This document shows, one piece after another, positions 4,000 through 64,000 of a stretch of DNA of 64,000 nt. The notes beneath the pieces are model-generated. The model saw only the letters and a program-made list of their open reading frames with translations. It was not told the DNA's origin and ran no database searches. Each line of letters begins with the position of its first letter. The stretch's first letter is position 1. Both the position numbers and the translations under genes were made by a program. This DNA is from Amoebophrya sp. A120 (taxonomy: Eukaryota; Protista; Dinoflagellata), in assembly GCA_905178155.1 (NCBI GenBank), contig CAJINV010000005.1, forward strand, positions 5,615,469 through 5,679,468, given 5' to 3'.

Positions 4000-4145
4000 T
4001 ATGCACTGCAAAAGTATCGTACTCGTATAAATGCATTACAAATTTTCTCAGCAAGAGAAATGAAATTTGTATATGCAAATTTACCTTAAGAAAAAGATTT
4101 GTAATGCATGACTGCAATACGAGTGCCATACTTTTGCACAGGATA
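4000..4145. mobile_element. Introner family A
   Basis: TIR; GACCT/GACCT. Confidence 0.9.
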
Positions 4146-18946: not shown

Positions 18947-21900
18947 ATGGCCACCTTCATCGTCCCACCCGAACCTCCCCTCTTCACTGCCACTCTCGAG
19001 GAGTTGGACAAAATTTCCTTTCGCGAGTTCACCGCCGAGCAATACGACCAGTGTGACAAATATCCACAGCAAATTTCTCGTACACGTACAAATGCGGCCC
19101 CTGCATGGCAAAACTTGGCTTCCATCCTGGTTTAGCATGGCAAGTTTTAGTACACTCCAAGTTGGTGAAAATTGTGTTGCATCTTGTGCATGTAAGGGAA
19201 ATTTGTATTGCATAACAAAGACAAAATCCCACCCGGCCAACTCCTGATCGCGGTGAAGAATGTCGGAATTTGCGGGTTATCCAGGAAAAATTACCCATCC
19301 CCATCCAATTTGTCATGCAGACCATGCATAATTTTAATTTGTAGTGTGTGTCATGCAAAACATGGATGGGGATGGGTGGTTTTTCCTGGATACGGGTCCG
19401 ACGTCCACTACTGGAAGCATGGGCGGATTGCCGACTTTGTCGTGGAACAACCGATGATTCTGGGCCACGAGTTATGAGAGTGCACAACCTTCCCTCCCCC
19501 TCCCCCTCATTTGTATTCCATGAACAGCAATACAAACAGCACCACACGTGGAGCCAGTGCATGACAACTTCCTGAGCCTACTGTAGTACTGTTTCAGATC
19601 CCGGAATCTGTCATGCAGACCGTGCCGCAACGCCACGATAGGATTTCGGATTTTGCATGACAAAGGAGAGGGAGGGGGAGTTGTGCATTCTCATACGAGT
19701 GCACTGGGGTGGTGGTAGGGGTCGGACCGAGCAGCGGAACAACAAGTGCTGGCTATCCTGTGCAAAAGTATCGTACTCGTATAAATGCATACAAATTTCC
19801 TCAGCGTGAGAGCTGGAATTTGTCATGCTGTTTTACCTTAAGGACAACATTTGTCATGCACAACTGCGATGTTTAGTACGTGTGCGATACTTTTGCACAG
19901 GATACTGCCGCTCCCTCCACAACTCTCCTCCAAGTCGGCGACCGAGTGGCGCTGGAGCCCGGAATTCCCTGCGAGCAGCCGGATTGCGAGATCTGCATGA
20001 CAAAGTCCACAGTCGCAGCGCCGGCGGAGTACGGCAAAGAGATGAAGTTCAAATACAACCTTATGGGGGTGTCAGGATTGCAAGCGCCTTCAGAGTCGAG
20101 ATAGTTTGTCATGTATAAAATGCAGCCCACAGAGTGCCTGTCGTGCAGAGTAGGCAAGTGAGGCAGATTGTAAGCCTGTTGAGAGGTAAAAACTGAGCTG
20201 CTAAAGTAGCATGACAAAAGGCGTCTTCCTTACCCAAACAGCATGACAAACTGGATTTCGGCCCTACCCAAATTTGTCATGCGCTACTTGGGAGCTGGAT
20301 TACAACTTTCACCCATTTTATGCATTACAAGTTATCTACTTAACTTTGTCGATTTCAATCTTGACACATCCATAAACCTCTGCCCCAGGGTAAAATTCTT
20401 CGCGACGCCACCGATTGACGGTATCCAAGAAAAAAACGTTGTTAGTGTAAATTTGTGATGCGCAACATGCAAGATGATTGCGTCTGTCATGCTTAGCATG
20501 CATCGTAGCGCCCACTAAAGGGCGTTTTCGCGTGCTATCTGCGCATGACAGGTTTTTGCTGTCATGCCAGACAATGCTGTTCCTCCAAAAAAGTTACACC
20601 TACAATCTTTTTTCCTGGGATAGACGGGTCTCTGCGAACAGTAGTTACCCACCCGGCGAAATTTTGTTTCAAGCTCCCAGACACGGTCAGCTTGGCGGAG
20701 GGGGCGCTGTGCGAGCCGTTGAGTGTGGGGGTGTACGCGTGTGGACCGGACAAGGGGCAGGTAAAGGAGGGGGACTCGGTAAGTATTGGAAAGAATTTAT
20801 TTTTCAGAATTGTTCATCGTTTGTGATCATATGCTCTTGCATTTGCAAGCAGAAAGGAAAACTGTAGCTGTGTGCACAAAATCCTCGTGCAGCTGGAATA
20901 GGGATGAAGATACCAGCTCAATTTAACAAAAGCAGCCTAGTCGCATCACAACACCGACGCGCGAGCTGTACGCCGCCCGCGCAAAACTGTCGCAGCTATT
21001 CGCCGTTGCTGCCCACGTTGCGTTCTGCTTCTGATGCGCCGCCGCCCGCGACTCTACCTCTAATAAGAACGCAGGAGATTTCTTCCTGGGGCTTTGCGGG
21101 TCAGCACAAGTGCGAGGAGGTAGCTGCTGGTAACATGATGAGCGCGCGCTGCCCACCGTGCACACGTGTAGTGCGTGGCACTTGCGAGAAAGTTTGGGAA
21201 TGTGATAAAACAGGTAAGATCAAGTTTTCAACAACATGCCTTCTGAGCCAAATGTAGAGTCAAGAAAAGAACCCATGCTGCGATTGAAAAATGTAAATGC
21301 TAAACTCAAATAAAACTTGGGCCTCCGAGACGCAGCAACACAATAACTTCCGTTTGAGCTATGCTGCTGAAAATGCTCTATCATGTTCATCCTCCGTGTT
21401 CCACTATCAGGTCATCATCTTTGGCGCCGGACCGGTCGGCACCCTTTGTGCCCTTGTCGCAATGGGCCTCGGGGCAAAGAAGGTGGTGGTCTGCGACGTG
21501 GATGTAAACCGATTAAAATTTTTACAAGACACTTTCAACGACGAGTATGAAGGTGAAAAATGAAAATTCTGTCAGAGGAAGTCATCTGCTGCATGGTTGA
21601 AAATCAAAATTTTATGGTTGCATCGATTTAGAGCACTAGTTCTTGACAAAACTACATAAATCTGCATCTGTTCAACCCCGACGGCAATTTTTCATCACTT
21701 TTTCGCCTTCCATACCCCCCAAGACCGGCTCTCCACGCACTTCACCGGTAATGGCGCCACCGCCCGGGATTCATCCACGGAGGCAATGGAGAAATTCAAC
21801 AACGGACAGCTCTACGACTGCGCCATCGACTGCTGTGGCGTGGCCACCGCGATTAGCTGTGCGATCTACAGCACAAAACCGGGAAAAAGGGTGGTATTGG

Positions 21901-22428
21901 TCGGGATGGGCGGAAATTTTTCCAATATACCGCTAATCGACGCAAGTATCCGGGAGGTGGATTTGGTGGGGGTTTTTCGGTACCGCTACACCTACTCGAC
22001 GTGCATTCAAATGCTCGCGGAGAAAAAGATCGACGTGTCGAAGCTGATCACGCACAAATTTCTATCACAGGAAAAAAAAATTAACGGTAACGGAATTTGC
22101 GATGCAGCAATGCATCGCAAAGCGTAAGTACCCAAATTTGTCATGCCTAGCCTGCGTGCTAGCTTGTTTTTGTGATGCACTACTGCAATCTCTAACCTTC
22201 TTTCTTGTGATAATTTCCATTCAGTCAGGAGGGCGTGGAAAACGCGATGGAGCATTGTAGTATCCAGGGAAAAACACCCTTCCACATCCAATTTGTCATG
22301 CAAAACATAAGTACATAAAGTCCTGCGCTTGTCATGCAAAAAATGGATGCTGGAACTGGATGGGTTTTTTTCTGTGGATATGTAGGACGGGGAAGGACGG
22401 GTGTGTGAAAGCGATGTTGGAGTTGTGA
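18947..22428 (+). CDS. SORD: Zn-dependent sorbitol/xylitol (L-iditol) dehydrogenase, MDR family; 9 introners and one GT-AG intron (20779-21410)
   Basis: Spliced motifs [43 protein letters not shown]...[48 protein letters not shown]. Confidence 0.95.
19061..19214. mobile_element. Introner family C
   Basis: TIR; ACAAA/ACAAA. Confidence 0.9.
19278..19392. mobile_element. Introner family E
   Basis: tatccaggaaaaattacccatccccatcc TIR; CGGGT/CGGGT. Confidence 0.92.
19473..19695. mobile_element. Introner family H
   Basis: TIR; CGAGT/CGAGT. Confidence 0.92.
19754..19904. mobile_element. Introner family A
   Basis: TIR; CTGGC/CTGCC. Confidence 0.9.
20062..20374. mobile_element. Introner family F
   Basis: TIR; AACCT/AACCT. 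Confidence 0.9.
20422..20622. mobile_element. Introner (singleton family in this window)
   Basis: tatccaagaaaaaaacgttg / caatcttttttcctgggata; GACGG/GACGG. Confidence 0.88.
21546..21714. mobile_element. Old introner with decayed direct repeat
   Basis: tatgaaggtgaaaaatg / cactttttcgccttccata; ACGAG/CCCCC; element + 5 nt removal still restores frame. Confidence 0.78.
22063..22212. mobile_element. Introner family D (absent from duplicate exon)
   Basis: TIR; ATTTC/ATTTC; empty site near 24155. Confidence 0.93.
22261..22380. mobile_element. Introner family E (absent from duplicate exon)
   Basis: TIR; TGTAG/TGTAG; empty site near 24200. Confidence 0.93.
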
Positions 22429-23812
22429 TGTTCGTTTACTTCATAATAAATCATGCTCCTGCAGATGGCTATAAATAGAGTAATCTTCTTCAAACAACTT
22501 TCCAGACCCAGAGATTTCATTGTGTAGTGTCGCTGCAACACAAGAAAAAGAATCGTTATGTGAAGCACCATTTGTTAACGTACTAGAGAAAAACTTTGGA
22601 AGATGAAGACGAGAATTGCCATGCGCGTGCTCCCGGTAAATTCTGTGCCAAATATACGTGATGTTTCTGACCAGCACTTTGCCGAGAGCATTCGTTCGTC
22701 TGCGCGCCGACGGACTTGTGGGCCGCAAAAAAGGCACTATCGGTCATCTTTTTTTCCGTGCAAACCGTAGATAATTGTCCTGACTCAAAAACCTGAGAAA
22801 TTATTTATATTTTACATCGTACGAAATAAATCGTGCGCAAGAACAACAAGAAGGCAGCTGTCACGTCATCGTCAAGGGAAGAAAAAACTGTCATTCGGTA
22901 CGTTTATTCGTGGACGTAACAAGGAAATTCGTGGTAGCGTACAAAAACTCGAAGCTCTTTCCAAATCGGTTGAAAGAAGAAGTTGTCAGCACGACATATC
23001 TAGTAGACAGAGTTTGGTTACAAATGGAAACCTCAACAGGTGGTGATGTTTTTCTACCTCCCCCATAGATGACCATTCCCCATACTAGAGGCGATAGTAG
23101 TGCGAGGAGAGGTCGCTGGCGCTAGGCCGCGCCGCCGAAAGAGGTGGACGCACCATCGTGTTTCTAATTTATTTTCATGTAGTTCATATCCCGTGTATAC
23201 TAAAGTTTAAGTTTTACATTTTCTTTTTACACTATTACTTGCTGCAACACAAACTGGACCTGGAAGTAAAAAACCGCTCTGAAGCACGACCCCACCGTGT
23301 GTAGTTACCGAAGCGGCATAGGTGTTTCCCAACATAAATTTCATCATTGTAGTCCCCCGTAGTAGTTTTGTACCCGTAATTTCAGGGCGACGTCCTGCAT
23401 TCGATTCTGTAGAACGACTTGTACGTAAAGGAACAAATTACAAAAAAAATCCTGACTGGGGAAGAATTTTTGCAACCCAAGAAAAACTTTTAGCTTCTTT
23501 GAATCTGTAACTCACTGCATCTCATCAGCGCCTTTGTGTCCTTGTTGAACCTCGGGGGCCACTGGTGGAGGTGGTAAACAAACAGAGGTACTAGCTAGTA
23601 GTAACATTTCGCATAAGTAGCCCGTCGTGGAAAAAAACATCATGGCAGAGAGTAGCTGCACCAGTACCAGTAGCAGCGACAACTACAACGTGGGCAGCAC
23701 TGCATTCGTGGAGAGAATCAGCAGTACTAGTACAACGCAAGATCTAGGTCTTCGCGATGTCGGTGTTGAACGACAGGATATTTTTTTTTCATCACATTTT
23801 CCCCTTCCATAC

Positions 23813-24245
23813 CCCCCAAGACCGACTTGCCACGCACTTCATCGGTAATGGCGCCACCGCTCGGGATTCCTCCACGGAGGCAATGGAGAAATTCAACCAC
23901 GGCCAGCTCTACGACTGCGCCATCGACTGCTGTGGCGTGGCAAGTGCGATTAGCTGCGCGATCCACAGCACAAAACCGGGAAAAAGGGTGGTTTTGGTCG
24001 GGATGGGCGGGAACATGTCGAACATACCCTTGATCGACGCAAGTATCCGGGAGGTGGATCTGGTGGGCGTTTTCCGGTACCGCTACACCTACGCGACGTG
24101 CATTCAAATGCTCGCGGAGAAAAAAATCGACGTGTCAAAGCTGATCACGCACAAGTTTCCGTTCAGTCAGGAGGGCGTGGAAAACGCGATGGAGCATTGT
24201 AGGACGGGGAAGGACGGGTGTGTGAAGGCGATGTTGGAGTTGTGA
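23813..24245 (+). CDS. Duplicated, intact, intron-free C-terminal exon of the sorbitol dehydrogenase (partial gene or alternative exon)
   Basis: [58 protein letters not shown]; mostly synonymous differences from copy 1. Confidence 0.7.
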
Positions 24246-25309
24246 CTTGTGTTTGAATGAATACTAAATAGATACTTCTTCGTGCTTCAGGAGAAGATCA
24301 CATTTATTGATGAGCATGCACCAAACAAATCATGTACTACGTGCAATAGACAATGACATATCACATCAATGTTGTGAAGCGCATGCGGTAGAGTAGAAGA
24401 AAACAAAAAAACCGAATGTTGCCTGCTGCGCTTCTACTGCTGGAAGCTTTGGCAGTAAGGACGATAGCCATGGAGCCGACCACCGCGTGTAGCCATCTGG
24501 AGCTGTCTGTAACTCTAGCATTTCAACATCAACAAGAAAGGCACTATCGGTCATCTTTTTTTCGTGCAAAGCGAGTTGTCCTGACATAAAAACGAAAACC
24601 TCGTCCTGACAAATTATTTAATACATCGTAAATTATAGTGCACAAGAAGAACAACAAGAAGGCAGCAGCTGGTGCCATGTCATCGTTAAGAGAAGAAAAG
24701 AGTGTCAGTCGGTACTTTTTTCTCGTGGACGGAAGAGCAAAGAAATTCGTGCTAGGGTACAAAAACAACTCGACTTTTCCAAATCGGTTGAAGCAAGAAG
24801 TGTGCAGTACCACATAAAAATAGCGAGACAGCGTTAGTTTCGTCACAGAAAAATCGAAACCTCGACTACAGGTGGTGTCGTTTTTCTACCTCCCGCCCTA
24901 TAGACCTACCACCTTTCCCCCATTATACTAGAGGCGATAGTAGTGCGAGGACAGGTCGCTGGCGGTAGGCCGCGCCGCCGGAAGAGGACGCACCATCGTG
25001 TTTCTAATTTTCCATGTGCATGTAGATCATTGCCATCCCGTGTATACTAAAGTTTTACTTTTTCTTTTTACACTATTAATTGCTGCAACACAAACTGGAC
25101 CTGGAAATAAAAAACCGCTTTGAAGCACGACCCCCCCACCGTGTGTAGTTACCGAAGCGGCATATTAGGTGTTTACCAACATAAATTTCATCATCGTAGT
25201 CTTTTTAAACCTCGGAGGCCACTGGCGGAGGTGGTAAACAAACAGAGGTCGTAGTAACATTTCTCATAAGAATAAGTAGCCCGTGGTGGAATTGGAAAAA
25301 AAAAACATC

Positions 25310-28300
25310 ATGGCGGAGAGTAGTTGCACCAGTAGCAGCGACAATTACAACGTGGGCACTGGAACTGGTGCTGCAGTCGTGGACAGCATAAGGAGCACTA
25401 CAACGCAAGATCTAGGGCTTCGCGATGTCGATGTTGAACGACAGGATATTATGCAGCTGCAGACAACATCTGGAGACTCTCGTCGGGAAGAAGTAGAGGA
25501 GTCGTGCCGGTCAGCATCATCCTCTACAGGAGCTCCTCCGTCTGCAATATCAAAAATGAGCACCACGACGACGACGAAACAAACCCTGTTGACACCACCT
25601 GCGATAGCGACATCGACACCACAGAATATCAAGCAGGGCCTCGACCTCTATCAAGTGCAAAAGTGTCTGGGTCTGGAAGGATGTAACTTGTGATGCGCAT
25701 TTCAGAACACACAAAAATCTCTGATGCATAGGCAGCAAAAGCTGCTCACTTTCTGTCACCAACATGGCGGATTTGATGTCATGCGGATTCGGCATTGCGG
25801 AAGCTTCTCGAAACCTGTGACGCTAGAGCTTCCATGCCGGGCCTTCTGTGTCATGCAGAAACAGCATGACTCTTCCAGACCCAGACACTTTTACATTTGA
25901 TAACCTCCTCTGGACTACGAATCTCCCAGACGGCGTTCTGGTCGAGATTTTCGAGTTTCTCGACCCTTTGTCGAGTTTGTACTTTCTCCAGGCGAATTGC
26001 ACCAGTAGCACCGGCGGTTTTGGCTCGTTTTTATCGCCGGAGAGAGGACGAGAACAGGAAGGTCTTCAGGATGTTCCTGGCGGGGGGACACCAAACGGCA
26101 ATAAACTCCTGCCCAACTTCGGCATCAACTTCGTGACCACGAACAATATCTCGTCGCTCCAAAGGTGCCTCTCGAACGGCGACGTGGTGAATTTGAGTGT
26201 TGCTCCGACGGCGGCAGACCTGGTGCAGCTGGTGCACCAGCACGGTCAAAGAACAGCAGTCCAGACAGCAGCAGAGAATTTGCAGACCGGGTTCTTCGGA
26301 GCAAGTGCAAGTTCCCTGGAAGACAACGCTAAGTCAACCGCAAGTACGGTATCCACATCCGCAGCTGTCACGACGACAAACTCCATCTCGACGACTTGTT
26401 CTGGTGCCAGTGGATCATCATCTTCGATGTCGTCCTTTCATCTTCACCTTTGTTCCACGATGAGTCCAATGTCCGCGAAAAGTCCGATTAGCAGTGTCAT
26501 GGAGCTCTCACCGGAGTTGGAGCCCGCTTCCGCAAGTGCAACAACTCCATCGGCAATAAAACAAGCATCCACGACCTCGTCGACCTCCGGGACGACCACG
26601 ATGAAGGCGACGATCACTCTACCGCTGTCCCATTTCGAAACGGGGATTGTGCCGGTGCCAGCGAAATTGCCGCTGCTGAAGTCGTTGCACATATCGGAAA
26701 TTTCTCTGCTGGATGAGAATCAGGATCTGGACGAGTTGCAGTGGCTGATTGAATATGAATTGCAAAAGCATCGCACTAGCATAAACTGCATTACAAGTTG
26801 TCTCAGCATGAAAAGTTGACTTTGTAATGCTGTTTTACCTTGGAACGGAAATTTGTCATGCATGCCTGCAATTAGTACGAGTGCGATACTTTTGCAATGC
26901 ATATTGAAGAGAATTCGTACTTGACAGAGATCAAAATCGGCGGACAATTGGAATTTCTGCGGGCGGTGAACAGTTCGGATTGTTCTTCCAGCGAGAAGAA
27001 AGACGAAACTGCTCCTGCTGCTGCTGTCAAGAATTGTTCGCCAGCAAGCGCGGCGGCCTCCAAAGTAGAACAAAATAACAACTCTACAACTACCACGACG
27101 ACGACCCAATCCTTGCTGATGGAGCGTCTCGCAAAGCTGCGTACCTGGTTCGAGAGGAATTTTGAAAGGTCGATTGAGCTCAAAAAGGAGGAAATCAAAG
27201 CCCAGGCTGCGTTTTCAGCGTTGTCTCGGACCGTGTCCCGCGAAATAACAGGAGACCATCCTGTAGTTCAGGCGGGCAATAATAAAAATTCGCCGAGTGA
27301 TCATGATTCTCTTTCTCCTGTGGATGATGATCATGCTCTTGACCAACACAACTTTTACAACGGTCAAATGACGTCAACCACTGGTGCAGCTCATCTCTCC
27401 CGAAGCAAAAACCCTTCTTCGCACTTCTCCTCGTTAGCCGATCTCCACACGTCGGCTGCCGCGTACGCGTCTACGGCGACGGGGGAGGAAAACAACTCGC
27501 TGCATCTGAACAACACGGCTTCGGAGCGGTATTTCGATACTTCGGCGAGTTCAGATGAGGAGGTGGTGACAACACAGTGTATCTTCGTGATGAACACGAG
27601 AGAAGATGGCGAAGATGAGGAGCTGCTGTGGGAAGATAGCGCCGACATGGTCGTGGAAGACAAATCGAAATCGTCTCTGCTATCGTTTGAGAACAAGAAG
27701 AACGTCGACCAAGTGATTTGCGTGGAGGATGTTGACAACTTGTCGACAACTTCTGCAGCCTTTCACAAGCTCACCCGCAGCATTCCGACAATGAACACAG
27801 CCACAGCCTCAAGTAGTTTATCCGGAAGCAAGCTGAATTACCTCGTGAAGCGCACCCTGGAAAAAGCTTCTTCCGGAACTGGGTCCAAGGAATCGCTCGG
27901 GAGCGACGGCCCTTCCAACAACTACTGTAACTCCGGCAGTTACAGTGCGTTTGCCTTCTCCCCTTTCGCACGAGGAAGCAATGAGCAATCCACCTTGAAC
28001 CAAACGAAGAGCACGATGGCGCCACACTCCTACGGCGATTTGTTGCAGCAACAGCATTCACCATTGAAATCCGCTACCAGTGGTAATTCGCTTCTGAAGC
28101 ACGTCCCGAGTTACCAAGACGTGAAGAAAAAGTTAAAGCAGCGGCTGGGCGGCGCTGTCCTTTCGGAACCTAAGAACATGGAAGTAGAAGGACAGCAAGA
28201 AAGCATCAATCAATTTCCTGGCGAAATTCAGATTGACGAGGAGACCTTGCTAAAGACGACTTCGAGATACAGTGACAAATATGAGAAGCAAAACATCAGC

Positions 28301-29671
28301 TCCTCTTCCCGCAACACAAATCCACCTGCGACCCTGAATTACGATGTGACCGTTCCGGCCTGTCTCCTCCAATCCCTCGGGGTTAACAACAACTGCCAGA
28401 AGCTGCAGCAGCTCACGCTTTTCCAAATCAAGCCGGAGTCGCTGCTCGGTGTGACGAGAATTTTCTTACCCGAGTTGCTCAAATTGTCCATTCAGTTCAT
28501 GCTGGAATACCGGCCGAACAACAAACCCTACATTTGGAACTACAGCAATCTGTTCGAAACCCCGAAGATCCAGGATCTCCAGCTCGAAAACGTCTCTGCC
28601 AGGCAGGTTTTCCATTTAAACCTCGAGAACAACCAGATACGCGGGGACTTGATTTCCGATTTCCCGCGGGTGACCGGCATAGCGCAGCTGCTGGAACGGT
28701 TGGATCTGGAGGGGAATTTGGAAAAATTCCGGGTGTTTAAAACGAAGCGAATGTGCTTATTACCGGAGGAAGCCGCTGACGTTTTGCGCTTGTTGGCGGG
28801 GAGAGGACGAGGGGAGAATGTCGGGAGTGTTTTGACGCCGAGGGATTTGGTGTTTGATTCAACAGACAGTGATAGTGAATTACAACCAGCGGTCGAAGAA
28901 CCTGGAGTTTGTTTTCCTCAGACGATCAGCGAAGAACCTCGTCCCCAGGGGACACCATTAGACAATTGCCCACCACCAGCAGCACCACCAACAACTACCC
29001 TGTCCGATTCCGACATAGAGCACAAGAATAAAAAGCCCTCCAAGCGACCTCCCGACAATTCCCTGGAGCTGATTTCCTTCGTCTGCCATCCGAAGATCAA
29101 CATAACCTCCGTTCAGGAACTCATCAAGATCCGGATTGGCCTGCAACTCCCCGCGTTCGGGGCACACAAAAACGGGATTACCGCGTCGAAGCAGTGGCCC
29201 AAGAACTGGCCGAGCCTGAAAACAATGTACCCAAGAGGGAAATACCAAATCACCGGGTTTAACGTGTTTCAAACCGACTTTGTTTTCTCGGAATTTGAAG
29301 ACGTGGAAGACGCGGCGGTTGAGTGGCGGAAGTTGATATGCGTTGCAAATATGTCTGGGTCTGGAAGGTGGCAACTTGTGATGCTGTCTTCGGATTCGAA
29401 AGAAAAATGCATGACTAGAAAGAGGAGACGAGTCTGGGCTGCGCGGGGTGGGCATTTCTCCTTTGGAATATGCATCAGAAAGCTCTCCAAAAATCTGTGA
29501 TGCTAGACCAACATCACAGGCATCAGGGGTCATGGAAAATGTGCATGACAAACGTTTCATTCTTCCAGGCCCAGACATATTTACATTTGATAGTTGAACA
29601 AAGAGGAAAAACAGTTCTTCGACGACCTCAGCCTGAGGTTCAGGCGGAAGCTGCTGTTTGATTTGAGTTGA
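25310..29671 (+). CDS. F-box protein with LRR-like segments; 3 introners
   Basis: Spliced LDLLWTTNLPDGVLVEIFEFLDPLS fits the F-box motif; LPLLKSLHIS, CQKLQQLTL, LPELLKLSI, LERLDLEGN are LRR-like; ORFs join in frame. Confidence 0.72.
25649..25902. mobile_element. Introner family B
   Basis: TIR; ACCTC/ACCTC. Confidence 0.92.
26754..26903. mobile_element. Introner family A
   Basis: TIR; TTGAA/TTGAA. Confidence 0.92.
29337..29592. mobile_element. Introner family B
   Basis: TIR; GTTGA/GTTGA. Confidence 0.92.
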
Positions 29672-52700: not shown

Positions 52701-55700
52701 CTGTGCGACATGCTGGTCCTGCGCGGTTTAAAATACGATGAGCAGAAGCCAATGACTCGAGCACCAGTGAGCTTGAACTATTTCGGCGGGTTCTGTGATT
52801 TGAAGAAGAACTACAAAAACGTGGGTAGTAGTACAACAGCCTCCTCTTCTATCGTACAAAAAAAGTGTTTCACTGTAAGGATCTTACAGGTTTTGCATCA
52901 CAAGTTTGTTCTACATGACCGAGAAAATTTGCCATGCGAGGTTCCTAAAGGGAAAACACAGCGAAAAATCCACAGTCTTGCATGTGTAGCAAGACAAACG
53001 CTTGCGAGATACACTTTCTGCATTACAAGTTTACAGTGAAACAGTTTTTTCTGGGGATATCTTCATCTTCTGGTCAACGACTTTCCACCACCCCGACTTC
53101 CGCTGCGGCTGCTATGGAGTTCTCAAACGTTACACTCTCAACTGTTACATGCATTTGTCATGCAAAGTTGCCAACAGCCTCCACTTGATGAAGGTGCTTT
53201 AGCATGACAAATTTTCGAAGGGCTAAGCAGCATGGTAATCTGTGGCAAAAAATCTGTGATGCGAAATATGCTGCAACGTTGCCACTTTTACTGTTGCTGT
53301 TCTTGCATTATGTAACGTTTGAGAACGCTATAGGTGCTATGTGGCAGAGGACCCCGAGTCTCGGCAGTCAGCACCCGGGGGGATTGCTGCCGAACGAGAC
53401 AATGTATGAAATGCAAATAGGTCTGGGTCTGGAAGAATGCGACATTTGTCATGCTAGTCTGGAATGACTCTGCACTCTGTATTGCGTGGCCACCAAGCGG
53501 CCCGCTTGCCTTTCATGCGAATAAAGCGCAGTTTCTCATGCGAAATACGCATCACAGAAGCACGAAAAGAGTTGTCATGCTTGGCGGCGCAGTACAGAGC
53601 ACTCTATTGTTCACGGAGTTGCATCACAAGTTTCCAGACCGCCAGACATTTTTGCGATTGAGACAATGCAGCTGCAGTTTGACACGTTAGTCAAGGAAGT
53701 ACTGGACGAGGTAGAAACCATATCGCAAGAAAAAACTGTTTCGCTGTAAATTTGTAATGCAGAAACTGTATCTGAGAAGTGTTTGTCTTGCTATACATGC
53801 AAGACACTAGATTTTTAGCTGTGTTTTCCCCTAGGAATCTCGCATGGAAAAGTTTCTCTGTGATGTAGAACAAACTTGTTTTGCAAAATAACTTACAGTG
53901 AAACACTTTTTTCGTACGATAAACCACGTCGTCAAAGGCCCCCGCCATTGTAACCGGGAAGAAGATGTCCTCGCCATCGAAACGCCCGCCGAGCGACAAC
54001 AAGAAGGGCACGACTAGCAAAGAAGATGAACCAGAAACGGCGATGAAAGTAGACGAGACCTTGGATGAAAAGCAGAAAGTCCTCGCTTTGTTCAAACAAA
54101 AACAGCAGAAAATCAAATCTCTCCCGAAGATCTACTCCACCATCAGCCCTTTCTCCCCGTATTTCCAGCTTCTCCAAGTGCCCTACGGGTGGCATTTGCG
54201 GTACTCCCGCTCCAGCAATCGGTCCTACTACGAGCACGCAACCTTCAAGCAAGAGAAAATCCAGAATTGGCAAAAGCGTGAGAAGCCGCAACTATTGGCA
54301 AAACTGGAAGAAGAGAAGAAGAAGCTCACTGAGGATGTCGCCTCGAAGAGGCAGCAAGCAAGAGTCGAGCACTACAAGAATGCGTTAAAAGCGCAGCATC
54401 CGGACAAGATGCGATTTCACTCTTGGACGGAATTGTACAAAACACCCATTGGGTGGCAAGCGAGAATTCCTTCTGACGTGTGGAAAAACGAAATGAGTTT
54501 CAAGAAGATGCCAGATTCGGTGGAGTTTGGTAGGTTGCAGAAACTGGAAAACCAGAAGAAACCGGACCAGAGGAAACTACTCGATCCGGAGGACACGATA
54601 TGCATCGCAAAAGTTTATCGTATTAGTGGATTAATTGCATTACAAATTAGCTTAGCATGACTGATGTAATTTGTCATGCTGTTTTAGCTGAGAAATGCTG
54701 AACTGCAATTAGTACACGAGTGCGATACTTTTGCAGTGGATACACGAAGTCGCGGTACGACGTGTACTTTGAGAACTCGTTTTTGGACAAGAGGTTCACC
54801 ACCGGCGGCAGTACAGATATCACAAGAAAAAGTGTTAACGTTAACGGAATTTGTGATGCAGTGATGCATCAGAAAAGGTGCGCAAATTTGTATTGCATAG
54901 CATGCATGGAAGGCAAAACTTGTAATGCATGACTGCCAACTGTGGAAAGCCTAATGTTAACATTTTTTTTGTTTGATAACAGGCAGTGGCGCTTCCTCCT
55001 CCGCGGCGAAAACGACGAATAGCACGGTTATTCCGACTGACATGCAGGAGTTGCTGAGAGCGACGGACACCTTTGACAACCGGAACTTTTTCAGCTTGAA
55101 AAACTCGACGATCAAACAGAACACTTCGCTATCCTGTGTGAGAAAAACGTCCCAACCCCGAAGTTGTCATGCAGATTTGCGATTACAGGAACATTTGTCG
55201 TGCGCATCTCCATGAAATGCATTTCAGATCGTGTTCTAAAATTTGTAATGCTGTAAACAGGATGACTGAATTGCTTTGTCATGCAGCTTCCCTTGCTGAC
55301 CACACTACGCTGCAGATGGAAAGAACTTGTCATGCGCAACTCCCAAAACTTGGAGACTTGTCTAGCAGACTTGACTATGGGGTCCTCGTGGGGACGTTTT
55401 TACTCAGGACATTCCCTCTCCTCCGTGGACCTTCTCGCCGTGAAACTGCAAAAAGACGAGATTTCCGAAGAGGCCGTGGCGAATTATCTGAAACAGGAGG
55501 CAAATCGGTTTTACACGGCGAACGTGACGGACTGGAATTTGCCGTTTAAATCCGCAGACCAGTCGACCAGGGATTGGTTGGTCAGTCAAAACGGGATTTT
55601 TCTAGTGAGAAAGTTCGGCCACGAGAGGAGTATCAAGGATTTTACCAGTCCGGAGTTGGCGAAAGTGGATATGGACGACTGGAGACACGAAAAACGGGAA

Positions 55701-58451
55701 CAACCAGAGACTCTCGCTATCAAAGTGAAAAAAAAACCCTCCCCCTATCGAAACGAAGTTTCTGATGCTGGATTTGCGAACACAAATCAGATTTGTCTTG
55801 CTGGAGAGGACTACAGACGCATAGTAATCCGGAGCAGAGCGGCTTTGGCATAGGCACTTAGCATGAAGAACGTCCGCACTGCAGGCCCAACAGCATGACA
55901 AAACGCCTGCAAAATGCGGCGGAGACTGTGGAGCTGCCTTCTTGCAAGACAGACGCGATCTGTGGCCACAAATCAGCAACGCAAATTGTCGAAGACGTGA
56001 CCACGCGTCAATATGTGTATGGGGAGGGGGGATTTTTCCGTGTGATACTCGTGGACGACGCGGCTGTTGAGGACGTGTTTGCTGCGCTGGATGGGAATAA
56101 CGCCGGGTATTTTCATGGGGCAGGACGAACAATGTATGGCGAGGAAGTAGACCAAGGATGGTCACTGGAGCGGGAGCTTTTTGAACAGCAGCAGGAGATA
56201 AATAACGAAAATGGAGGCGGACCTCCTCCGCAGTTGTTCTACAACGAATCTGTACTGCAATTTCAGCAGCAAGTGCAACAGCAAATTCAGGAGTACCAGT
56301 TGCAATCTCCGAATTTTGATGTCAAAGAGGACGAGGACCAGCAGCAGCATCGTGATTTCTCACAACCGCAGGCGCACCAGCAACAAGCGCATCAACTGGA
56401 GGGCGCGCATCAGCATCTTCAGGAGCAATACGGGTGGTGGAGCTCGCCGGAGGAACAGCAGCGTGTCGGGTGGAATAATATTACCGCTACATCGCCCTGT
56501 TCTTGTGAAGGAAACCAAAACACTTTGTTCAATGACAGTCTGCGTCTGTCCCGGTTGCAGAGGAGCTCGGAGGACTTGTTATCCACCGGGAAAAAACACC
56601 CATCCCCATCCAATTTGTCATGCACAACATGTGTATCAGTTCAACAGGGCCCGCGGTTCAACAATGTACCTACCAGTTCAATACCGCCCCGGGGCCTAAA
56701 TATCCTAGAACAAGCAGGCCATTTGATATGCTCGGCGCCAAAAACATATGCAGGTGGAGGAAGGAGTAGGGGGGGCGTTCCTGACCCAAAGGTACGCTCC
56801 TGATCTCAGTGGTACTTAGTCGACCCGGGGGGCCAGGTATTACCTGACCCCCGGTTCGGGTCTGTGCCTGCAATGCTGCAGCGAAGTCGTTTTAGATGGT
56901 GCTGCAGCACAGCTGCGCGCACCTTGATGGGCGCCAAAGGCCCCAAGTCTGTCGCTACAGAAAACGGTAGCCATGACTGCGATCGGCCCTAGTGTTCGAC
57001 CGCTTTCTGTTTGAAACCAGCGCCGCGCACACAGCTTCGGTCTTCGTGCGCCCATTGATCGGAAGCAGCGTCCCTAAATCCTACGGCCGGCAGCCGTGCC
57101 ACCGTAAACAATAGTCGCGCAGCGCTTCGCGCCTCACAAACCAAAATCGCGCGCGCGCGCGCCAAAATACAGGACCTTTTGGGGCTTGTTGCGTGCACAT
57201 TCTTTTTGCGACATATGGCGCCCGCAAGATATGCTCTGTAGCTCATCGGGATTCTTTTCTCCCGTTGCCCGCTCTTTTTTTCGGGGTTTGGCACGTGCAC
57301 TACGTATGGTTCTCTTCTTTTTCGTATGCCCGGAACCTTCACGAACTAAGTAGTTCGTGAACTGGGGTACACTCTCGAACCGATTCACATGCATAAAATC
57401 CGCTAGTTGTCATGCAAAAAATGGATGGGGATGGGTGTAGAAGTCTTTTCCTAGATACTTATCTGAGGAAGAACATTTAGAAGACCGCCTGAACGACTTA
57501 CTCCCGTACAGCTTCTACGGAGGGGATAGGATGAAGGACAACGGTACAACTACTAGGGGCGAACAGCAGGAGACGAACCAGCGAGCTTCAAAAATATTGC
57601 CAGACGAGCCGCGACATCATCAACATCATGACGCGGTGGAGGAACCTGTTCCGTTTAATAGCGAAGGATCCTTTTTGCTGCCTCTGGAAGTAGGAGAGAC
57701 GCAGAGAATCAACGCGGAGACTACACCAGGAGGCACCGCTCGTCGTGCCAGCGAGGATCATCCTCTCCTAGAAGAGCACCAACAGGACGAGGACGAGGAC
57801 GAGTATGACGAAGCGGCGGAGGCCCGGGAGCTCGCTAAGGAATTGGAAAACGGTCTCGGCGCTCTGGTGTTGGAATCGCCAGAATTGCTGGTCTCGTTGG
57901 CAGAGAGCTTGGAGAAGGAGGAGCAGGAAAAAATGAAAAAGGAGAAGGAGGAGGCTGAAGCTCAAGCTGCAAAAGTAGTAGAGGACAAAGAAAATATTAT
58001 CCCCACAACTAGTACAACTGGTGGCCGTGCACCAGCTGCACAAACGAGAAGTTGTCCAGGGGCGCGGCGTCCTAGTTCTCGCGATAAAAAAGCAGCAGAA
58101 GACGACTACGATTTTGAAGCAGAATTGCAGTCTCCCACGGATGTGACCGCGAAGAACCAGCAGGATACGACGGTAAATAACACTTCTGCAGGACGAGCGG
58201 CGTCAAGCGCCAAGGATCAACAGCAGAGTAAATATCTCAAACTGCCACTGGAGGAGCCAGACGAAGCGGGTGATGATGATGTCGAAGATGATCACGATTT
58301 GGATGACCACTGGGATCTTCTTCGCGGGGAGGACGATGACGATCATTGGGATGGATTGAACTCGCCCGGGGCCGCTGGGGATAATTCAGAGGCTCCTGAG
58401 CACAAGAACATCAATAAGCGAAAACTACTACACAAGCGAAAGCTTGTATGA
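40752..58451 (+). CDS. Giant hypothetical protein (~3300 aa), 33 exons separated only by introners; KGKG-rich N-terminus and a WW-like motif
   Basis: Hand-traced continuous frame across 32 introners; VPYGWHLRYSRSSNRSYYEH (~54178-54237) resembles a WW domain. Confidence 0.8.
42307..42489. mobile_element. Introner family C (inverted orientation)
   Basis: TIR; CATGA/CATGG. Confidence 0.88.
42558..42709. mobile_element. Introner family A
   Basis: TIR; CAGCA/TAGCA. Confidence 0.88.
43093..43354. mobile_element. Introner family B
   Basis: TIR; CCCGC/CCCAC. Confidence 0.9.
43420..43571. mobile_element. Introner family A
   Basis: TIR; CGTCT/CGTCT. Confidence 0.9.
43688..43991. mobile_element. Introner family G
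   Basis: TIR; CCGGA/CCGGA. Confidence 0.88.
44027..44308. mobile_element. Introner family B
   Basis: TIR; GAAGG/GAAAG. Confidence 0.88.
44393..44572. mobile_element. Introner family C (diverged)
   Basis: TIR; GCCGG/TCTGA. Confidence 0.8.
44757..45033. mobile_element. Introner family B
   Basis: TIR; GTTTT/ATTTT. Confidence 0.88.
45952..46259. mobile_element. Introner family F
   Basis: tatggaagcgtcaggttt / aaacctgacgcttccata; AACAC/AACAC. Confidence 0.93.
46295..46445. mobile_element. Introner family C
   Basis: TIR; CAGCA/TAGCA. Confidence 0.92.
46591..46757. mobile_element. Introner family A
   Basis: TIR; GTTAT/GCTAT. Confidence 0.88.
47072..47323. mobile_element. Introner family B
   Basis: TIR; GCAGG/GCAGG. 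Confidence 0.92.
47355..47629. mobile_element. Introner family B
   Basis: TIR; AAGGT/AAGGT. Confidence 0.9.
48041..48321. mobile_element. Introner family B
   Basis: TIR, right end ATG; CCGGA/CCAGA. Confidence 0.88.
49317..49468. mobile_element. Introner family A
   Basis: TIR; AATCC/AATCC. Confidence 0.92.
49532..49706. mobile_element. Introner family C (inverted orientation)
   Basis: TIR; GCGAG/GCGAG. Confidence 0.88.
49765..49913. mobile_element. Introner family A
   Basis: TIR; GCTGG/TCTGT. Confidence 0.88.
50028..50301. mobile_element. Introner family B
   Basis: TIR; GTGAA/GTGAA. Confidence 0.9.
50498..50662. mobile_element. Introner family D
   Basis: tatcacaggaaaaagtgtta TIR; GACTC/GACTC. 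Confidence 0.92.
51076..51237. mobile_element. Introner family D
   Basis: TIR; TACGT/TACGC. Confidence 0.9.
51825..51985. mobile_element. Introner family D
   Basis: TIR; GTGGA/GTGGA. Confidence 0.92.
52113..52375. mobile_element. Introner family B
   Basis: TIR; ATTTC/ATTTC. Confidence 0.92.
52559..52681. mobile_element. Introner family E-like
   Basis: tattccctgaaa / tttcagggaata; TCAGC/TCAGC. Confidence 0.88.
52850..53059. mobile_element. Introner family I
   Basis: TIR; TCTTC/TCTTC. Confidence 0.88.
53113..53332. mobile_element. Introner family J
   Basis: tatggagttctcaaacgttaca / tgtaacgtttgagaacgctata; GCTGC/GGTGC. Confidence 0.88.
53405..53663. mobile_element. Introner family B
   Basis: TIR, right end AGA; CAATG/CAATG. 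Confidence 0.85.
53721..53921. mobile_element. Introner family I
   Basis: TIR; AACCA/AACCA. Confidence 0.9.
54599..54742. mobile_element. Introner family A
   Basis: TIR; CACGA/CACGA. Confidence 0.88.
54818..54978. mobile_element. Introner family D
   Basis: TIR; ACAGA/ACAGG. Confidence 0.9.
55130..55411. mobile_element. Introner family G
   Basis: TIR, right end ACA; TTCGC/TTCCC. Confidence 0.85.
55718..56047. mobile_element. Introner (singleton family in this window)
   Basis: tatcaaagtgaaaaaaaaaccctcccc / ggggagggggatttttccgtgtgata; CTCGC/CTCGT. Confidence 0.85.
56580..57457. mobile_element. Introner family E carrying a nested insertion
   Basis: cacccatccccatcc / ggatggggatgggtg TIR core; CTTGT/CTTAT. 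Confidence 0.88.
56632..57387. mobile_element. 756-bp non-autonomous TG..CA element nested in an introner
   Basis: Termini TGTATCAGTTC / GAACCGATTCA (9 of 11 inverted match), CATG duplicated on both sides; empty family E copies read aaaaCATGcataa. Confidence 0.75.
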
Positions 58452-59293
58452 TCATCCACCTCGCGGCACACTTTCATCCATTTGAATTTGCACTGTGACA
58501 AGAAACTTCGTGGTAGCTTCAAGTTGATTGTAGGAAGTTGAAGTGATAGAGTATCTGACTAACTCTAGGTCTAGATCAGCGTCACTGGGGGCTTCTTTAC
58601 GAGAAGGAGAAGATGACAGAAAGGTATTAATTTTCATCGCAGCGCGTTCTCATTATCATATCATGATGTTTGCATGCGCATTTTTTGGCAACGACCATGG
58701 TGCGTCTTGGTCTTGGTTTCAGGGCAGCAGCCGTGAAGAATTTGGTATCTGCAGCTGCTGTCGTTCTTGCTGTCAGTGGTGCAGCTCCTTGCTCTGTTCA
58801 TCTAAGGATCGTTTCAACATCGTGCAAGGCTTAGTTTTCAAAGTCGGCGGCGGAAAAAGAAATGCAAATAGCGTTACGCAGTGGATGGCTTCTTCGCAGT
58901 CACTGTGCGTCTGCCTGTACCTACTTTTGTGGAACAGCACGATGATTTTTATTCTTAGGACCCACATCTTTTTTGTGTTGCTGCTTTTTCGAACAATGTC
59001 TCGTGCGTTTTTGTTTTTTTTTCAAAATATAACCGTCTTGACACTTGTGCACTTGTTTTGTGATCATCTTGCTCATTGTGTTTAGTGTGCGTAACCTGTC
59101 TGTAATAGTAGATGGGCTAGAGGGCGCGCCACGATTTTCCAAAGCCTTGCTTGTTTATGTTTCGCTCAACAAAAGGAACTGCCTCAATACCTGCCTGTGC
59201 AGAGTCAACAAAGTTATCATCTGCATCACTGAAGATTGCAAGCTGCTCACCTTCAAGTCTATTCTGTTCTAGATCTAGTCTGCTTTTTGAAAA

Positions 59294-62200
59294 ATGCGCG
59301 GTTGTGACGATCCAGCATCCGTCGCTGCTGGTCTCAACGTCGTTTCTTTCACCTACAATTGCGGTGGCGTGGAGCCCCCGCAGGAGGAAAATTTAAAGCA
59401 GAAGCTACAGGAAGAGATTCGGGAAAATCTGCTCCAGCAGAGGATTGATTGCAGTCGCAACAGTGATGGAAATGATCTTGTTGATTTTGCTGGTGCGCCT
59501 GCGGCCCATTCTGCTTATATTACCGTCGAACAACAAGCCGCAAATCCATCCACAACTGGAGGCACAACGAGGAGCGCTGGTGACCACAGTGTGTGCTTTA
59601 CCCCGGACATCGTTGTGATCAATCTGCAAGAATGTTGCCCGCTAGCCCTGGCCGCTTTAGGCAACAACGCTTCGGACTCCTACGGAAACAAATGGCGAGA
59701 CGTTTTCATTGAGGCTCTGGGCTACGGGCCATTAGACCGATTGACCTGCAGGTTTTACACCCAGTTGCACGGCGGGAAGGGAGCTTCAGGAACCGACGTT
59801 GCACCTGCGCAAGAGCTCGATATAGAGGAAAAATGCGAAAATTCCGCCGGTGATCAACATGTTGTATCGAGTTGTTCTAGGGCTCATGTCGCGTCCTCGT
59901 CCTCGTCTGCGAGCGCCGTTGCGGCTGCTAGTGACGTAGCTTGTTCCAAAAAGTGCTCCTCAAAATCGTCAGTAAGCACAGCGGCCTCGTCTTCTTCTAG
60001 TTTTGTTTCTACGGCAAGCAGCACTGGTGATTGGAAACAACTCGCAGCTTCCGCTTCGAGCTCTTCCAGGCTAGAAAGGGAAAGACAAATATGCTCATCG
60101 CCGGATAGCAATTGCAGTTCAAATTCGAGCGCCTCGACATCATCGAGTAGCGCTTCATCCTCTTCGACATCTTCCCCGTGTTGGACTACGACGGAGCAAA
60201 TCAGCCCCGCACCTAGAGCCAGTCCACCCGACGAGAGAAGGGATGAAATAAGCCCGAAGGATCCACCAGTGTCGCCGTCGCCCGACGCATTAGTGAACGA
60301 GAAAGGCCGCCGCGATCTGTTCTTCCCACCGGCCTTATCAACATCGGGAGGGGAAGATGTAAATAAACACGCACCACAAATCGCATCAAACGGAGCGGAA
60401 GACGAGACAGTTACGACAAACAGTTGTGGTTCATCTAGCAGCTGCTTCAGCGCTTCAGCGTTATCTTCAACCGCAGTGACGCCAGGGAATTCCAGTTCGA
60501 ATTCCTCTTGTTCTAGCTTTCTCCCGCCCGGCGGCGCAGGTATGGTAGTGTCAGGATCGAAATCGACAAAGTTGAAACATCAATTTGCGATGCATAAAAT
60601 GCAATCCACAGAATGCCTGTCTTGCAGAGTAGGCAAGGTAGGCAGATTGTAAGCCTGATGAGGGGTAGAACTAGAAACTGAGCTGCTAAAGTAGCATGAC
60701 AAAAGGGGTCTTCCTTACCCAAACAGCATGACAAACTGGATTTCGGTTCTACCCAAGTTTGTCATGCACCACTTAGAAACTGGGTTACAACTGGCATCCA
60801 TTTTATGCATGACAAACCATTAACGACTTCAATCCTGGCACTTCCATAGCAGGCAGTCGCTTTTTACAAGTTCCTCAAGCCGGGGGTGCGAAGGTGCGCA
60901 GTGCGGGAGGTCGTGCAGTTGTTGGGCAGCTGACCGCCGAGTCTTCCTCTGCGAGGACAGGCAGCATGACAACAGGAGGTGGAGGCTTTGGGTCCCGCCG
61001 GGCAACCGCGATCACTACGAATAAGATGCAGAAAAATTATAACCGCCGGCCGACACAGCTACCGGAAGAGCTGCAGGGCGGGTCGTTTGGAAGTACTTCT
61101 AGCTGCGCTCAGACTCAGACGCCTGCTGCAGAGGGCAAACAGGACGAAATAATAATAAAAGAAGTTCTTGCAAAAGTTGGTAAAAAATCCCGACGACGGC
61201 GCGGCACAGAGAGCAGTAGCACTGGGGGCTCCTTCATCGACCTTGCTGACTACGAAGACGCAGCCTGTCGCTCTCCCTCGTCACACAGTTGCCAGCAGAA
61301 CTTCTCATGCGAAACGCCGAAAGTAGTAAAGGTGAACAAGCAAGGTGGTAAAGCAGGCCCCAGCTGCTCAGGCGGTAGAATCGACGACGACCACTTTTCA
61401 ACATCCGAAACAACATCCGACTATCCAGGAAAATGAAACACCCATCCACATCCGATTTGTCATGCGAAACACGTATCAAAAAAAGAAAATTTCTGAAGAT
61501 AATGCTGTGTTTGTCATGCAAAAAATCGATGCTGGGGTTGGATTTTTTTTCCGTCAATACCAACAGTAGCCTCGCTGCGGATGTGGAGCACAGTCCAAGG
61601 TGCACCGTTTTGTATCACAGGTAAAAGTGTTAACGTTAAACGCTTTTCACCGATAATTGCAGTCATGCATCACAAATGTAGCCCAATGCGCATGTTATGC
61701 ATGACAAATTTTGGCACGTTTAGTGATGCATTGCTGCATCGCAAATTCCGTTAACGTCAAGAACACTTTTTCCTGTGATATTTTGAGCGCGACGGCAAGA
61801 AATTCCATAAGCAAGGCCATCAGACGGGAGGAGAGGAAGAATAAATCATCACTCCTGCTGCATCAAAAGACCACTAGCACACGGACAAAATTCAGTGGTT
61901 CGTCATCATCCACGACCGCCGCCCACACCGGGGAATGTTATCACTCCTTGGCGTTCGCCCCTATGTCGCAGCAGGTGACGACGCCTCCGAAACTAGGCTC
62001 CATCTCGTCCAAAACCGGACTTTTGCAGCCGCCCGCGCTGCTGAAAGTAGGAGCAGCTCATCCGGGAGGAGGTGCAGGCAATGCAAGTGCTTCGCCTTCG
62101 CATTCTCCTCTCAAGCACATGATCCACCAGTCACGACGCTGCCTGAGCCCCGGTCGGGTAGGACAGGAAAGTTCTCTGAACACATTGCCAAGCACGTGTA

Positions 62201-64000
62201 GCTATCCTGTGCAGAAGTATCGTACTCGTGGTAATTGCAGATATGCATCACAAATTTTTTTCTCAAGGTAAATCAGCATTACAAATTTCATTTCTCATTC
62301 TCATGCTGAGGAAATTTGTAATGCATTTATACGAGTGCGATACTTTTGCAGTTCATAGCACCACCTTCTCGACGTCCTCTTCCTCCAAAAAACTTGCAAA
62401 AGTCGCTTCCTCCCCTGGGCCGCTGCGGAGTTGTGCGGGCGGCCGGAAAAATTATATACAGCCGAAGACGTCGGGGTCAGCGCACACCAACAGCAGTGGG
62501 ACGACGAGTGTTGCCGGCCGCGGTCCTGGGGCAGCTGTTCTTTCAGCTGATGTGCGGAGCAAACAGAAGAACGTGGCTTTTTCAACAGCAGGAGCGACGG
62601 GCGGAGCACATCATCAAAACGACGCGGCGGTAATACCTTTGCAGGTCTCGTCAGAAGGTGTATTGGATTGCTCACCCAACTACGCTACCAAGGACCCGGA
62701 ACAAGTTCCTCCTCCTGCGCATCAAGCTGATAAAAAGCACATGACCGAACAACAGGAAGAATCAAACAGCAGCCACCAGCCCTTGATAAACAACATGAAC
62801 AAACCCCACTTACGACTGATCAAATCACACCGCATGGTGGGTTTGTTCACCCTCGTTTTCATCAACACGAAAAAAATCCCGACCTCTGCCATCCACTCTT
62901 GCACGAGTTGCCAACATAAATTAGGCTTCTTCAACGGCTTACTGGGGAACAAAGGGGCCATTTGCGTCCGCTTGACGCTGCAGATGCCCGGAGTGGTACG
63001 GACACAAGTATTAAGACCGCTCCGCCTCGCGTTTTTCAGTTTCCATCTCCACGCCGGGGAAGTATCCAGGAAAAAACACCCATCCCCATCCAATTTGTCA
63101 TGCAAAACATGCATAATTTGCAGCGTTTTTCATTTTCATGCAAAAAATGGATGCGGATGGTTTTTTCTTCTCGATAGGATGGCTTGAACGCGTATAAACA
63201 GAGGCTGAACGGCTTGAAAGAGGTGTTCGGGGACAAGAGTTGTATCTCCACTACCCAGGAGGGAGGCGAAGAACACGCCGAAGAGTCGCTGGTGCTCAAC
63301 CGAGCGTCTGTGACGTCAGCGTCGGGCAGGACTGTAGGTAGAAGTTCTGGTGTGGTCCAGCAAGGGGCACCAGGGAGCTCAAACAACGGCGAGGGTACTC
63401 AAACAACTGGCAATCCGTTGTTTGAATACGAGCGGTCATGTGACTATCGCAGGAAAAAGCGTTAACGTTAACGGATGAATTTTTTGTATATGCAAACACG
63501 CATGCCTATGCGTGCCATTGTCATTGCCGGAAAAAATGGAACTTGTATTCGCCATTTTTGCGTAGCATGTAATGTAGTAGAGAAAATGAAAATCATCATG
63601 TCATGTCCTTTAGGCTGAAGACCGTTAATAGCGTTAGCACTTTTCTGTTTGATACTGACTTCGCGTTTTTCAGTGGGGATTTCAATTTCCGCTGTATGCC
63701 GGTTAATCAAGATTATTTGCTGCAGGAGGATCATAATTTTGAAGGAGAAGGACATCTTGAAGGGCACCAGGAGCACGTGCACGCAAGCGGCCCGGGGAGC
63801 GAAATTCACCATGCTAGTAAAAACCTCCACCAGGTAGATCTTCAGGAAGAGGCCCTTTGCGGCTCCGCCGGTAATTTTTGCTGCTCGAACACCAGTAATT
63901 GCTGCTCCGAAAGCACGTTATCAAAGGAGACGGTAAGTGACTTCTGTGCGGTAGGCGGAGCTGGAGGTGGAGCCGCAACGACCTCAAGTTCTATCACAGG
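59294..64000 (+). CDS. Inositol polyphosphate 5-phosphatase (IPPc), 3'-partial, with long Ser-rich insertions; 6 complete introners and one starting at 63992
   Basis: Spliced motifs SFTYNCGG, PDIVVINLQE, SHRMVGLFTLVF, GNKGAICVRL, FFSFHLHAG, DFAFFSGDFNFR. Confidence 0.92.
60541..60848. mobile_element. Introner family F
   Basis: TIR; GCAGG/GCAGG. Confidence 0.9.
61422..61559. mobile_element. Introner family E
   Basis: Diverged TIR; CCGAC/CCAAC. Confidence 0.82.
61613..61780. mobile_element. Introner family D
   Basis: TIR; TTTTG/TTTTG. Confidence 0.9.
62203..62357. mobile_element. Introner family A
   Basis: TIR; GTAGC/GCACC. Confidence 0.88.
63063..63176. mobile_element. Introner family E
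   Basis: TIR; GGAAG/GGATG. Confidence 0.88.
63445..63654. mobile_element. Introner family D-like
   Basis: TIR; GTGAC/CTGAC; removal yields CDFAFFSGDFNFR. Confidence 0.88.

Follow-up and report, generated by a model that had tools for sequence, protein, structure and literature searches.

How cells remove thousands of transposon-derived introns lacking GT-AG borders is an open question, and it is posed many times over in a stretch of 64,000 nucleotides (nt) from the dinoflagellate Amoebophrya sp. A120 (GenBank assembly GCA_905178155.1, contig CAJINV010000005.1, positions 5,615,469 to 5,679,468 of the forward strand). This stretch, hereafter the window and numbered from its first base, contains 61 inverted-repeat elements that begin with TAT and end with ATA, usually flanked by a target duplication of 5 bp whose positions are counted here from 1 to 5. 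A preliminary description of the region 19749-63181 had observed that, where the two copies of this duplication differ at position 4, two bases before the 5' TAT, the upstream copy tends to carry G, and had proposed that selection was improving a 5' splice determinant in the intronic copy of the duplication. A G evolving at that place would have been a first handle on a 5' signal, but the proposal fails in that form. Our analysis shows that the removal of these elements is polarised although their ends are palindromic, and that the G in question is the last base of the exon. The reading that we favour, with a probability of about 0.6, is that G stands in the exonic copy of the duplication and that its upstream excess arises incidentally, as the intron-side copy decays and the exon-side one is preserved.

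The window is eukaryotic DNA with a G+C content of about 50%. A scan for sequences that begin with TAT, end with ATA, have inverted ends and agree in no fewer than four of the five flank bases yielded 47 elements, versus none in each of three shuffles. Looser scans and the joints of RNA contigs raised the curated list to 61, including five weaker elements retained because their removal lengthens open frames. The 61 elements measure 114-878 nt and occupy 21% of the window. Their ends read N-TAT(C/G)... and ...(G/C)ATA-NNNN; TAT begins 118 of the 122 ends, and AAA is found at positions 11-13 in 93 of them and within positions 9-16 in 104. They are distributed among at least ten families, plus eight singletons, and resemble miniature inverted-repeat transposable elements (MITEs), with both orientations present within single families (e.g., 6 versus 8 and 8 versus 4). 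As an example, element 19754-19904 has 151 nt, the 28-nt ends of which are mutually inverted. It was one of two elements folded, and the region 19745-19913 forms a hairpin with a long terminal stem in which TAT and ATA are paired (z = -7.9); the hairpin of the second, at 21537-21727, is weaker (z = -2.1). In composition, the elements contain less G than the exons (0.215 versus 0.282), and they are richer than the exons in A (0.284) and in T.

By their sequence, the elements match an already described kind, the introner elements of Amoebophrya sp. A120, presented by Farhat et al. (2021, BMC Biol 19:1; PMC7789003) as non-canonical repeated introns. A120 introners have an inverted repeat consisting of TAT, seven variable bases and then at least three A, and 3-5 nt direct repeats, drawn with 5 bp in an example figure, that overlap the exon/intron borders; their ends form a hairpin that brings the exons together, and the border dinucleotides are arbitrary (PMC7789003). 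They are about 240 nt long, belong to many families, make up some 17% of a genome whose genes form one-directional clusters (PMC7789003), and may number in the tens in single A120 genes (Gozashti et al. 2025, PMC12130899). The TAT followed by seven bases and AAA, the 5-bp repeats, the hairpin and the arbitrary borders of that description all recur in the window elements, as do the length, the multiplicity of families and the one-directional genes with many elements each, and structurally we see nothing that sets them apart from it.

Are these elements removed from RNA? The joints were read from the contigs of runs X3, X4, X7 and X8, all of one sample. The element plus 5 nt is skipped exactly at every element among the joints listed, at least 25 in all (at least 15 in one set and 10 in another), and a single contig of 3827 nt lacks at least 11 elements. 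The contigs that drop elements also drop a conventional GT..AG intron (Table 1), and their exon parts show zero differences from the window, which identifies them as spliced RNA. In X7 and X8 the contig depth at the joint of the conventional intron equals that at the element joints in 19055-20623. The RNA-level removal supposed by the preliminary description is thus supported. A strain devoid of the insertions, or programmed DNA elimination, was considered as an alternative source of these contigs and rejected, since the GT..AG intron is missing from the same contigs and the exons are identical. Conventional sites within the inverted repeat (GTGCAA...CACAG) were considered too; their use would spare 15 nt of the element, and it was rejected since precisely 156 nt are missing from the contigs. 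Three raw-read RNA runs under the same species label gave only 3, 3 and 1 reads on 42000-61999, too few to be informative. Beside the main joint of the conventional intron there is an alternative GT..AG joint, 21210->21408, which suggests an alternative exon inside that intron.

The coding capacity of the window agrees in length with these joints. Excision of the element plus 5 nt opens frames of 1597, 1301, 1238, 1195, 1044, 945, 792 and 629 amino acids (aa) on the + strand, the longest crossing 16 elements, whereas the best frame of the minus strand has 420 aa. The frames are open after removal of the element plus 5 (or 2, or 8) nt; when the element plus 0, 1, 3, 4, 6 or 7 nt is removed, the long frames stay closed. 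Long + strand reading frames contain 59 of the 61 elements. All genes in the window run one way, so that 'upstream' in the window is also upstream in the transcript. There is in addition a strong phase bias: in 30 of 59 elements of the window, and in 39 of 72 from other loci (see below), the exon ends on a third codon position, meaning that the elements tend to sit between codons.

With identical repeats the exact place of the cut is ambiguous, and diverged repeats reveal it. The RNA retains the upstream copy at position 2 (elements starting at 16318 and 53113), at position 3 (48041) and at position 4 (19754, 55130 and 56580), and the downstream copy at position 5 (54818 and 55718). A further element, 21546-21714, is flanked by repeats so decayed (ACGAG / CCCCC) that its borders are unambiguous. 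All nine informative joints (48041, 53113, 54818, 55130, 55718, 56580, 16318, 19754 and 21546) fit a cut placed one nucleotide ahead of TAT and four beyond ATA (register 1/4), and no other single register fits all nine. Under registers 0/5 and 5/0, moreover, the 1597-aa and 1044-aa frames are interrupted by stop codons. The cut consequently falls after position 4 of each repeat, which makes the upstream position 4 the last base of the exon and the downstream position 4 the last base of the intron. Elements of both orientations are removed (for instance 14695 and 19754, of one family). The polarity that had been suspected on an otherwise palindromic element does exist, in the form of this fixed cut.

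This register changes the meaning of the pairs that differ at position 4. Seven of the eight pairs of the preliminary description were located exactly (Table 1), six with G and one with A in the upstream copy; the second A-upstream pair was not found, even allowing for one end mismatch and a low inverted-repeat score. Its statement that no pair carries G only downstream is correct within 19749-63181, and the sole such case in the window, element 7468-7697 (C/G), lies beyond that range. This element (region 7460-7705) is peculiar in that its flanking direct repeat, GAAGATCA, has 8 nt where 5 nt is usual, and in lying outside the long reading frames. With the cut between positions 4 and 5, the upstream G is exonic, not intronic as had been proposed, and the RNA keeps it in 3/3 of the position-4 pairs covered by the listed joints. 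A compensatory role, in which the G/C difference would extend the terminal stem by one pair, was also examined. It is true of 19754 (GGC versus GCC) but, on inspection, is disallowed by the letters at 55130 and 62203, and was rejected as a general cause.

Is the imbalance itself real, and is it particular to position 4? For an independent sample we searched a collection of metagenomes for a 15-mer belonging to the largest family and obtained 67 loci of one assembly (78.7 kb) bearing the same families at 75-95% identity and having no flank in common with the window. They contain 85 elements after removal of one duplicate call. Open-frame length alone left 34 of the 85 unoriented, so a codon-usage score was used instead, which oriented 72. 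Leaving out 7468 (8-nt repeat, no frame) and 21546 (degenerate repeats), the window has 6, 4, 2, 7 and 6 mismatches at positions 1 to 5 (25 sites), of which 4, 3, 2, 7 and 5 (21 sites) fall within 19749-63181; mismatches are spread over the whole repeat, and position 4 does not stand out among them. Together with 8 oriented sites from the other loci, this gives 33 differing sites, at which G is in the exonic copy 19 times and in the intronic copy 5 times (p = 0.007), and A 2 and 12 times, respectively. The signal had been presented as one of position 4, where G is upstream-only in 7 pairs and downstream-only in none, but the same polarity exists at position 1 (4 versus 1) and position 3 (4 versus 0), though position 2 lacks it (1 versus 2). 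Conditional on the pattern at the other four positions and on how rich position 4 is in G, the probability of at least 7 of 9 differences with G at position 4 is 0.33. The upstream/downstream asymmetry of G is therefore real, modest and not specific to position 4.

Pure chance, acting on a small sample picked after looking, might be invoked here: the window supplies only 7 pairs, the hypothesis grew out of these very data, and the 15 elements outside 19749-63181 add no G-upstream case at position 4 and include a doubtful G-downstream one, at 7468. Nevertheless, when upstream and downstream copies are swapped at random, only 3.1% of 5000 trials contain a position-and-base cell with an imbalance of 6:0 or its like, a family-wise value of 0.031, and the independent loci add one G-upstream and zero G-downstream pairs at position 4, with exonic G in 6 of 8 differences overall. 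We consider chance alone to be highly improbable.

The frequency of G in undiverged repeats bears on when the bias arose. The last exon base is G in 25 of 59 in-frame window elements, against 17.0 expected from codon-position composition, and in 54 of 131 elements when the other loci (29 of 72) are included, against 38.2 expected (p = 0.004, uncorrected, with 16 positions examined). G is thus mildly enriched at the last exon base, where it is the commonest base, and it is so in both copies of intact repeats: in the independent loci, with 72 copies on each side, position 4 is G in 29 of the upstream and 28 of the downstream ones. This dates the enrichment to insertion or early survival and contradicts the idea of a later drift towards G after insertion. 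C at position 2 is similarly raised (42 versus 31.4 expected in the combined set), mirroring the G of position 4 around position 3, so that a weakly palindromic target preference is possible. A transposase preferring N-C-N-G-N targets, with the upstream/downstream asymmetry as sampling noise on top, would account for G in both copies of intact repeats and for insertion in both orientations. The raised C, however, comes from the other loci (27 versus 17.2) and the window alone carries no such signal (15 versus 14.2), and the imbalance of 19 versus 5 over all positions is hard to obtain from noise. As a full explanation, target preference seems to us quite doubtful.

We come back, then, to decay of the intron-side copy. 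Most differences between copies would have arisen on the intron side, where the repeat would relax towards the AT-richer composition of the intron, losing G and gaining A; position 4 would show this decay most because it was the G-richest position at the start. Two intron-side copies carry TAG against an exonic CAG, which places those two changes on the intron side. One of them belongs to element 46295-46445, which shares its repeat pair, CAGCA upstream and TAGCA downstream, with element 42558-42709 of a different family.

Several points weigh against this explanation or limit what carries it. The RNA evidence consists of contigs, not reads, from one sample, presumed to be RNA only by a tool's guess, and the listed joints cover only 3 of the 7 position-4 pairs. 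Except in the two TAG cases, the direction of change is deduced without an outgroup. The changes G>C (5 cases) and T>C (4 cases) show that there is no plain drift to AT, and G>A (11) is far above C>T (3), a strand asymmetry that is unexplained. The orientation of the other loci relied on a codon model trained on the window, with 13 of the 85 elements left unoriented and dropped, 3 of them with a mismatch; having been selected through exact matches to a 15-mer from a single family, these loci are mostly young copies with few mismatches. Finally, 4 of the 6 G-upstream differences in the window are synonymous third-codon positions, so protein-level constraint cannot hold these four Gs and a codon or splicing preference is required to do so.

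This last observation leads to the possibility, in effect the preliminary proposal with its anatomy corrected, that the removal machinery prefers G as last exon base, selection keeping or creating the exonic G and leaving the last base of the intron unconstrained. The enrichment of G at the last exon base, the 7:0 count at position 4 in oriented in-frame elements and the rarity of a 6:0 imbalance under random swapping speak in its favour. Yet the G of intact repeats is present in both copies, positions 1 and 3, which do not adjoin the cut, show the same polarity, position 4 has no excess over the general pattern, and 77 of the 131 elements have another last exon base and are spliced, or lie in open frames, all the same. 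Selection for an exonic G is, in our opinion, unlikely to be the main cause, and we retain the decay of the intron-side copy as the preferred explanation.

The improvement of a 5' splice determinant also finds no echo in the bases that follow the cut. Of 60 elements, only 13 have G as the opening base of the intron, and among the diverged repeats the window shows an intron-side G at position 5 in 2 of 6 cases. In the 1/4 register, only 2 of the 61 elements read GT..AG, both with the repeat GCAGG, and the other 59 have non-canonical borders. No conventional 5' site is under construction. The preliminary observation was, in short, mostly accurate but small, and its mechanism was mis-assigned.

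What then guides the cut? The terminal hairpin may set the cut sites by distance, in which case the polarity would be owed to the direction of transcription, the element itself supplying none. More tentatively, and at somewhat less than even odds, we propose a ruler code in which the cut is made 1 base 5' of TAT and 4 bases 3' of ATA, with any border letters and in either orientation; G would be mildly favoured as last exon base, and a place between codons strongly so. The legend of Fig. 3 in PMC7789003 gives the border position relative to the hairpin as variable or states that it 'remains unknown'; the 1/4 register derived from diverged repeats may refine it. A published statement of this register was not found in our literature search, which covered the supplementary figures of PMC7789003 by their legends.

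The nonconventional introns of euglenids offer a parallel. They lack GT-AG, have paired ends and border repeats resembling target site duplications, and are suspected to derive from MITEs (Nomura et al. 2025, PMC12501133; 2024 Mob DNA review, PMC11282704). In Euglena, the code N3-CAG...CTG-N5-6 implies cuts at fixed, unequal distances from a paired motif (PMC12501133). The window elements share with them the absence of GT-AG, the paired ends, the border repeats, a suspected MITE origin and the fixed, unequal cut distances. They differ in the motif and its place (CAG/CTG at +4 to +6 and -8 to -6 in euglenids, TAT/ATA at +2 to +4 and -7 to -5 here), in the cut distances and in belonging to an unrelated lineage, and the ends of the window elements do not carry the euglenid signature N3-CDG...CH'G-N5-6. 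The resemblance to Euglena is a likeness in working, not membership.

The introners of Micromonas and Aureococcus obtain a splice site from the target duplication. They are DNA-transposon-like, with inverted repeats and target duplications, and become introns on insertion (discussion in PMC7789003). As described there, they use canonical splice motifs, unlike the window elements with their two GT..AG cases.

Table 1. Coordinates of the elements and introns discussed, with the repeat pair (upstream / downstream) and the supporting evidence; ^ marks the cut.
Feature	Coordinates	Strand	Repeats	Evidence
All curated TAT...ATA inverted-repeat elements (61)	span 2892..63654	+		scans, joints, frame opening
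Element 16318-16596	16313..16601	+	TTACG / TCACG	joint 16314->16599 in 4/4 runs; upstream position 2 kept
Element 19754-19904	19749..19909	+	CTGGC (19749-53) / CTGCC (19905-09); G upstream, C downstream	joint 19752->19909, skips 156, slack 1, in X3, X7, X8; upstream G kept
Conventional GT..AG intron	20778..21409	+		joint 20777->21410; GT..AG with cut 1 place further right
Removed piece with unambiguous borders, g + TAT(21546)...ATA(21714) + cccc	21545..21718	+		joint 21544->21719, skips 174, slack 0, in X3, X7, X8
Element 43093-43354	43088..43359	+	CCCGC (43088-92) / CCCAC (43355-59); G upstream	repeats and codons; CCG versus CCA synonymous
Element 44027-44308	44022..44313	+	GAAGG (44022-26) / GAAAG (44309-13); G upstream	repeats and codons; AAG versus AAA synonymous
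Element 47072-47323	47067..47328	+	GCAGG	1/4 register reads AG^GTAT...GCAG^G, canonical GT..AG; cut 5 places further right
Element 48041-48321	48036..48326	+	CCGGA / CCAGA	joint 48038->48325, slack 2; upstream position 3 kept
Element 54818-54978	54813..54983	+	ACAGA / ACAGG	joint 54812->54979, slack 4; downstream position 5 kept
Element 55130-55411	55125..55416	+	TTCGC (55125-29) / TTCCC (55412-16); G upstream	joint 55128->55416, skips 287, slack 2; upstream G kept; right end of the element reads GGACA; TCG versus TCC synonymous
Element 55718-56047	55713..56052	+	CTCGC / CTCGT	joint 55712->56048, slack 4; downstream position 5 kept
Element 56580-57457	56575..57462	+	CTTGT (56575-79) / CTTAT (57458-62); G upstream	joint 56578->57462, skips 883, slack 1; upstream G kept; TTG versus TTA synonymous
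Element 62203-62357	62198..62362	+	GTAGC (62198-202) / GCACC (62358-62); differ at positions 2 and 4, G upstream at 4	repeats
Element 63063-63176	63058..63181	+	GGAAG (63058-62) / GGATG (63177-81); A upstream at position 4	repeats

Some further features of the elements and of the window were recorded. The 8-mer TGTMATGC occurs 130 times in the whole window, against 4.3 expected (e.g., at 19821-19828, at 19852-19859 and in 47113-47243), and 110 of its copies (62 on the + strand and 48 on the -) lie inside elements of unrelated families, where they are probably sub-terminal binding sites for a transposase or for an RNA-binding factor. Their presence on both strands gives them no polarity, and a role as strand signal was rejected. 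Element 56580-57457, of 878 nt, combines ordinary ends with a G+C-rich interior of about 750 nt and is still exactly removed in an RNA contig. At 49317-49913, two elements of the same family in opposite orientation and about 300 nt apart create a 124-nt inverted repeat, 85% complementary. Between 49541 and 49596 the reading frame is interrupted, and there may be here a further unrecognised element or a different joint. Across the gene cluster at 36001-56000, the + strand has a strongly positive A-over-T skew (0.09-0.15), together with a G-over-C skew. This fits one-directional transcription and may also be tied to the excess of G>A over C>T between repeat copies.

Diverged target duplications reveal the exact register of the cut and convert ambiguous intron borders into defined ones. 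In addition, the exon-side and intron-side copies of each duplication constitute a natural matched pair with which selection and mutation at such sites can be measured genome-wide. If the ruler code is true, it would settle the border position left open by the 2021 description of the A120 introners, and it would parallel the fixed-distance code of Euglena, such that a structure-measuring mode of splicing would have arisen twice.

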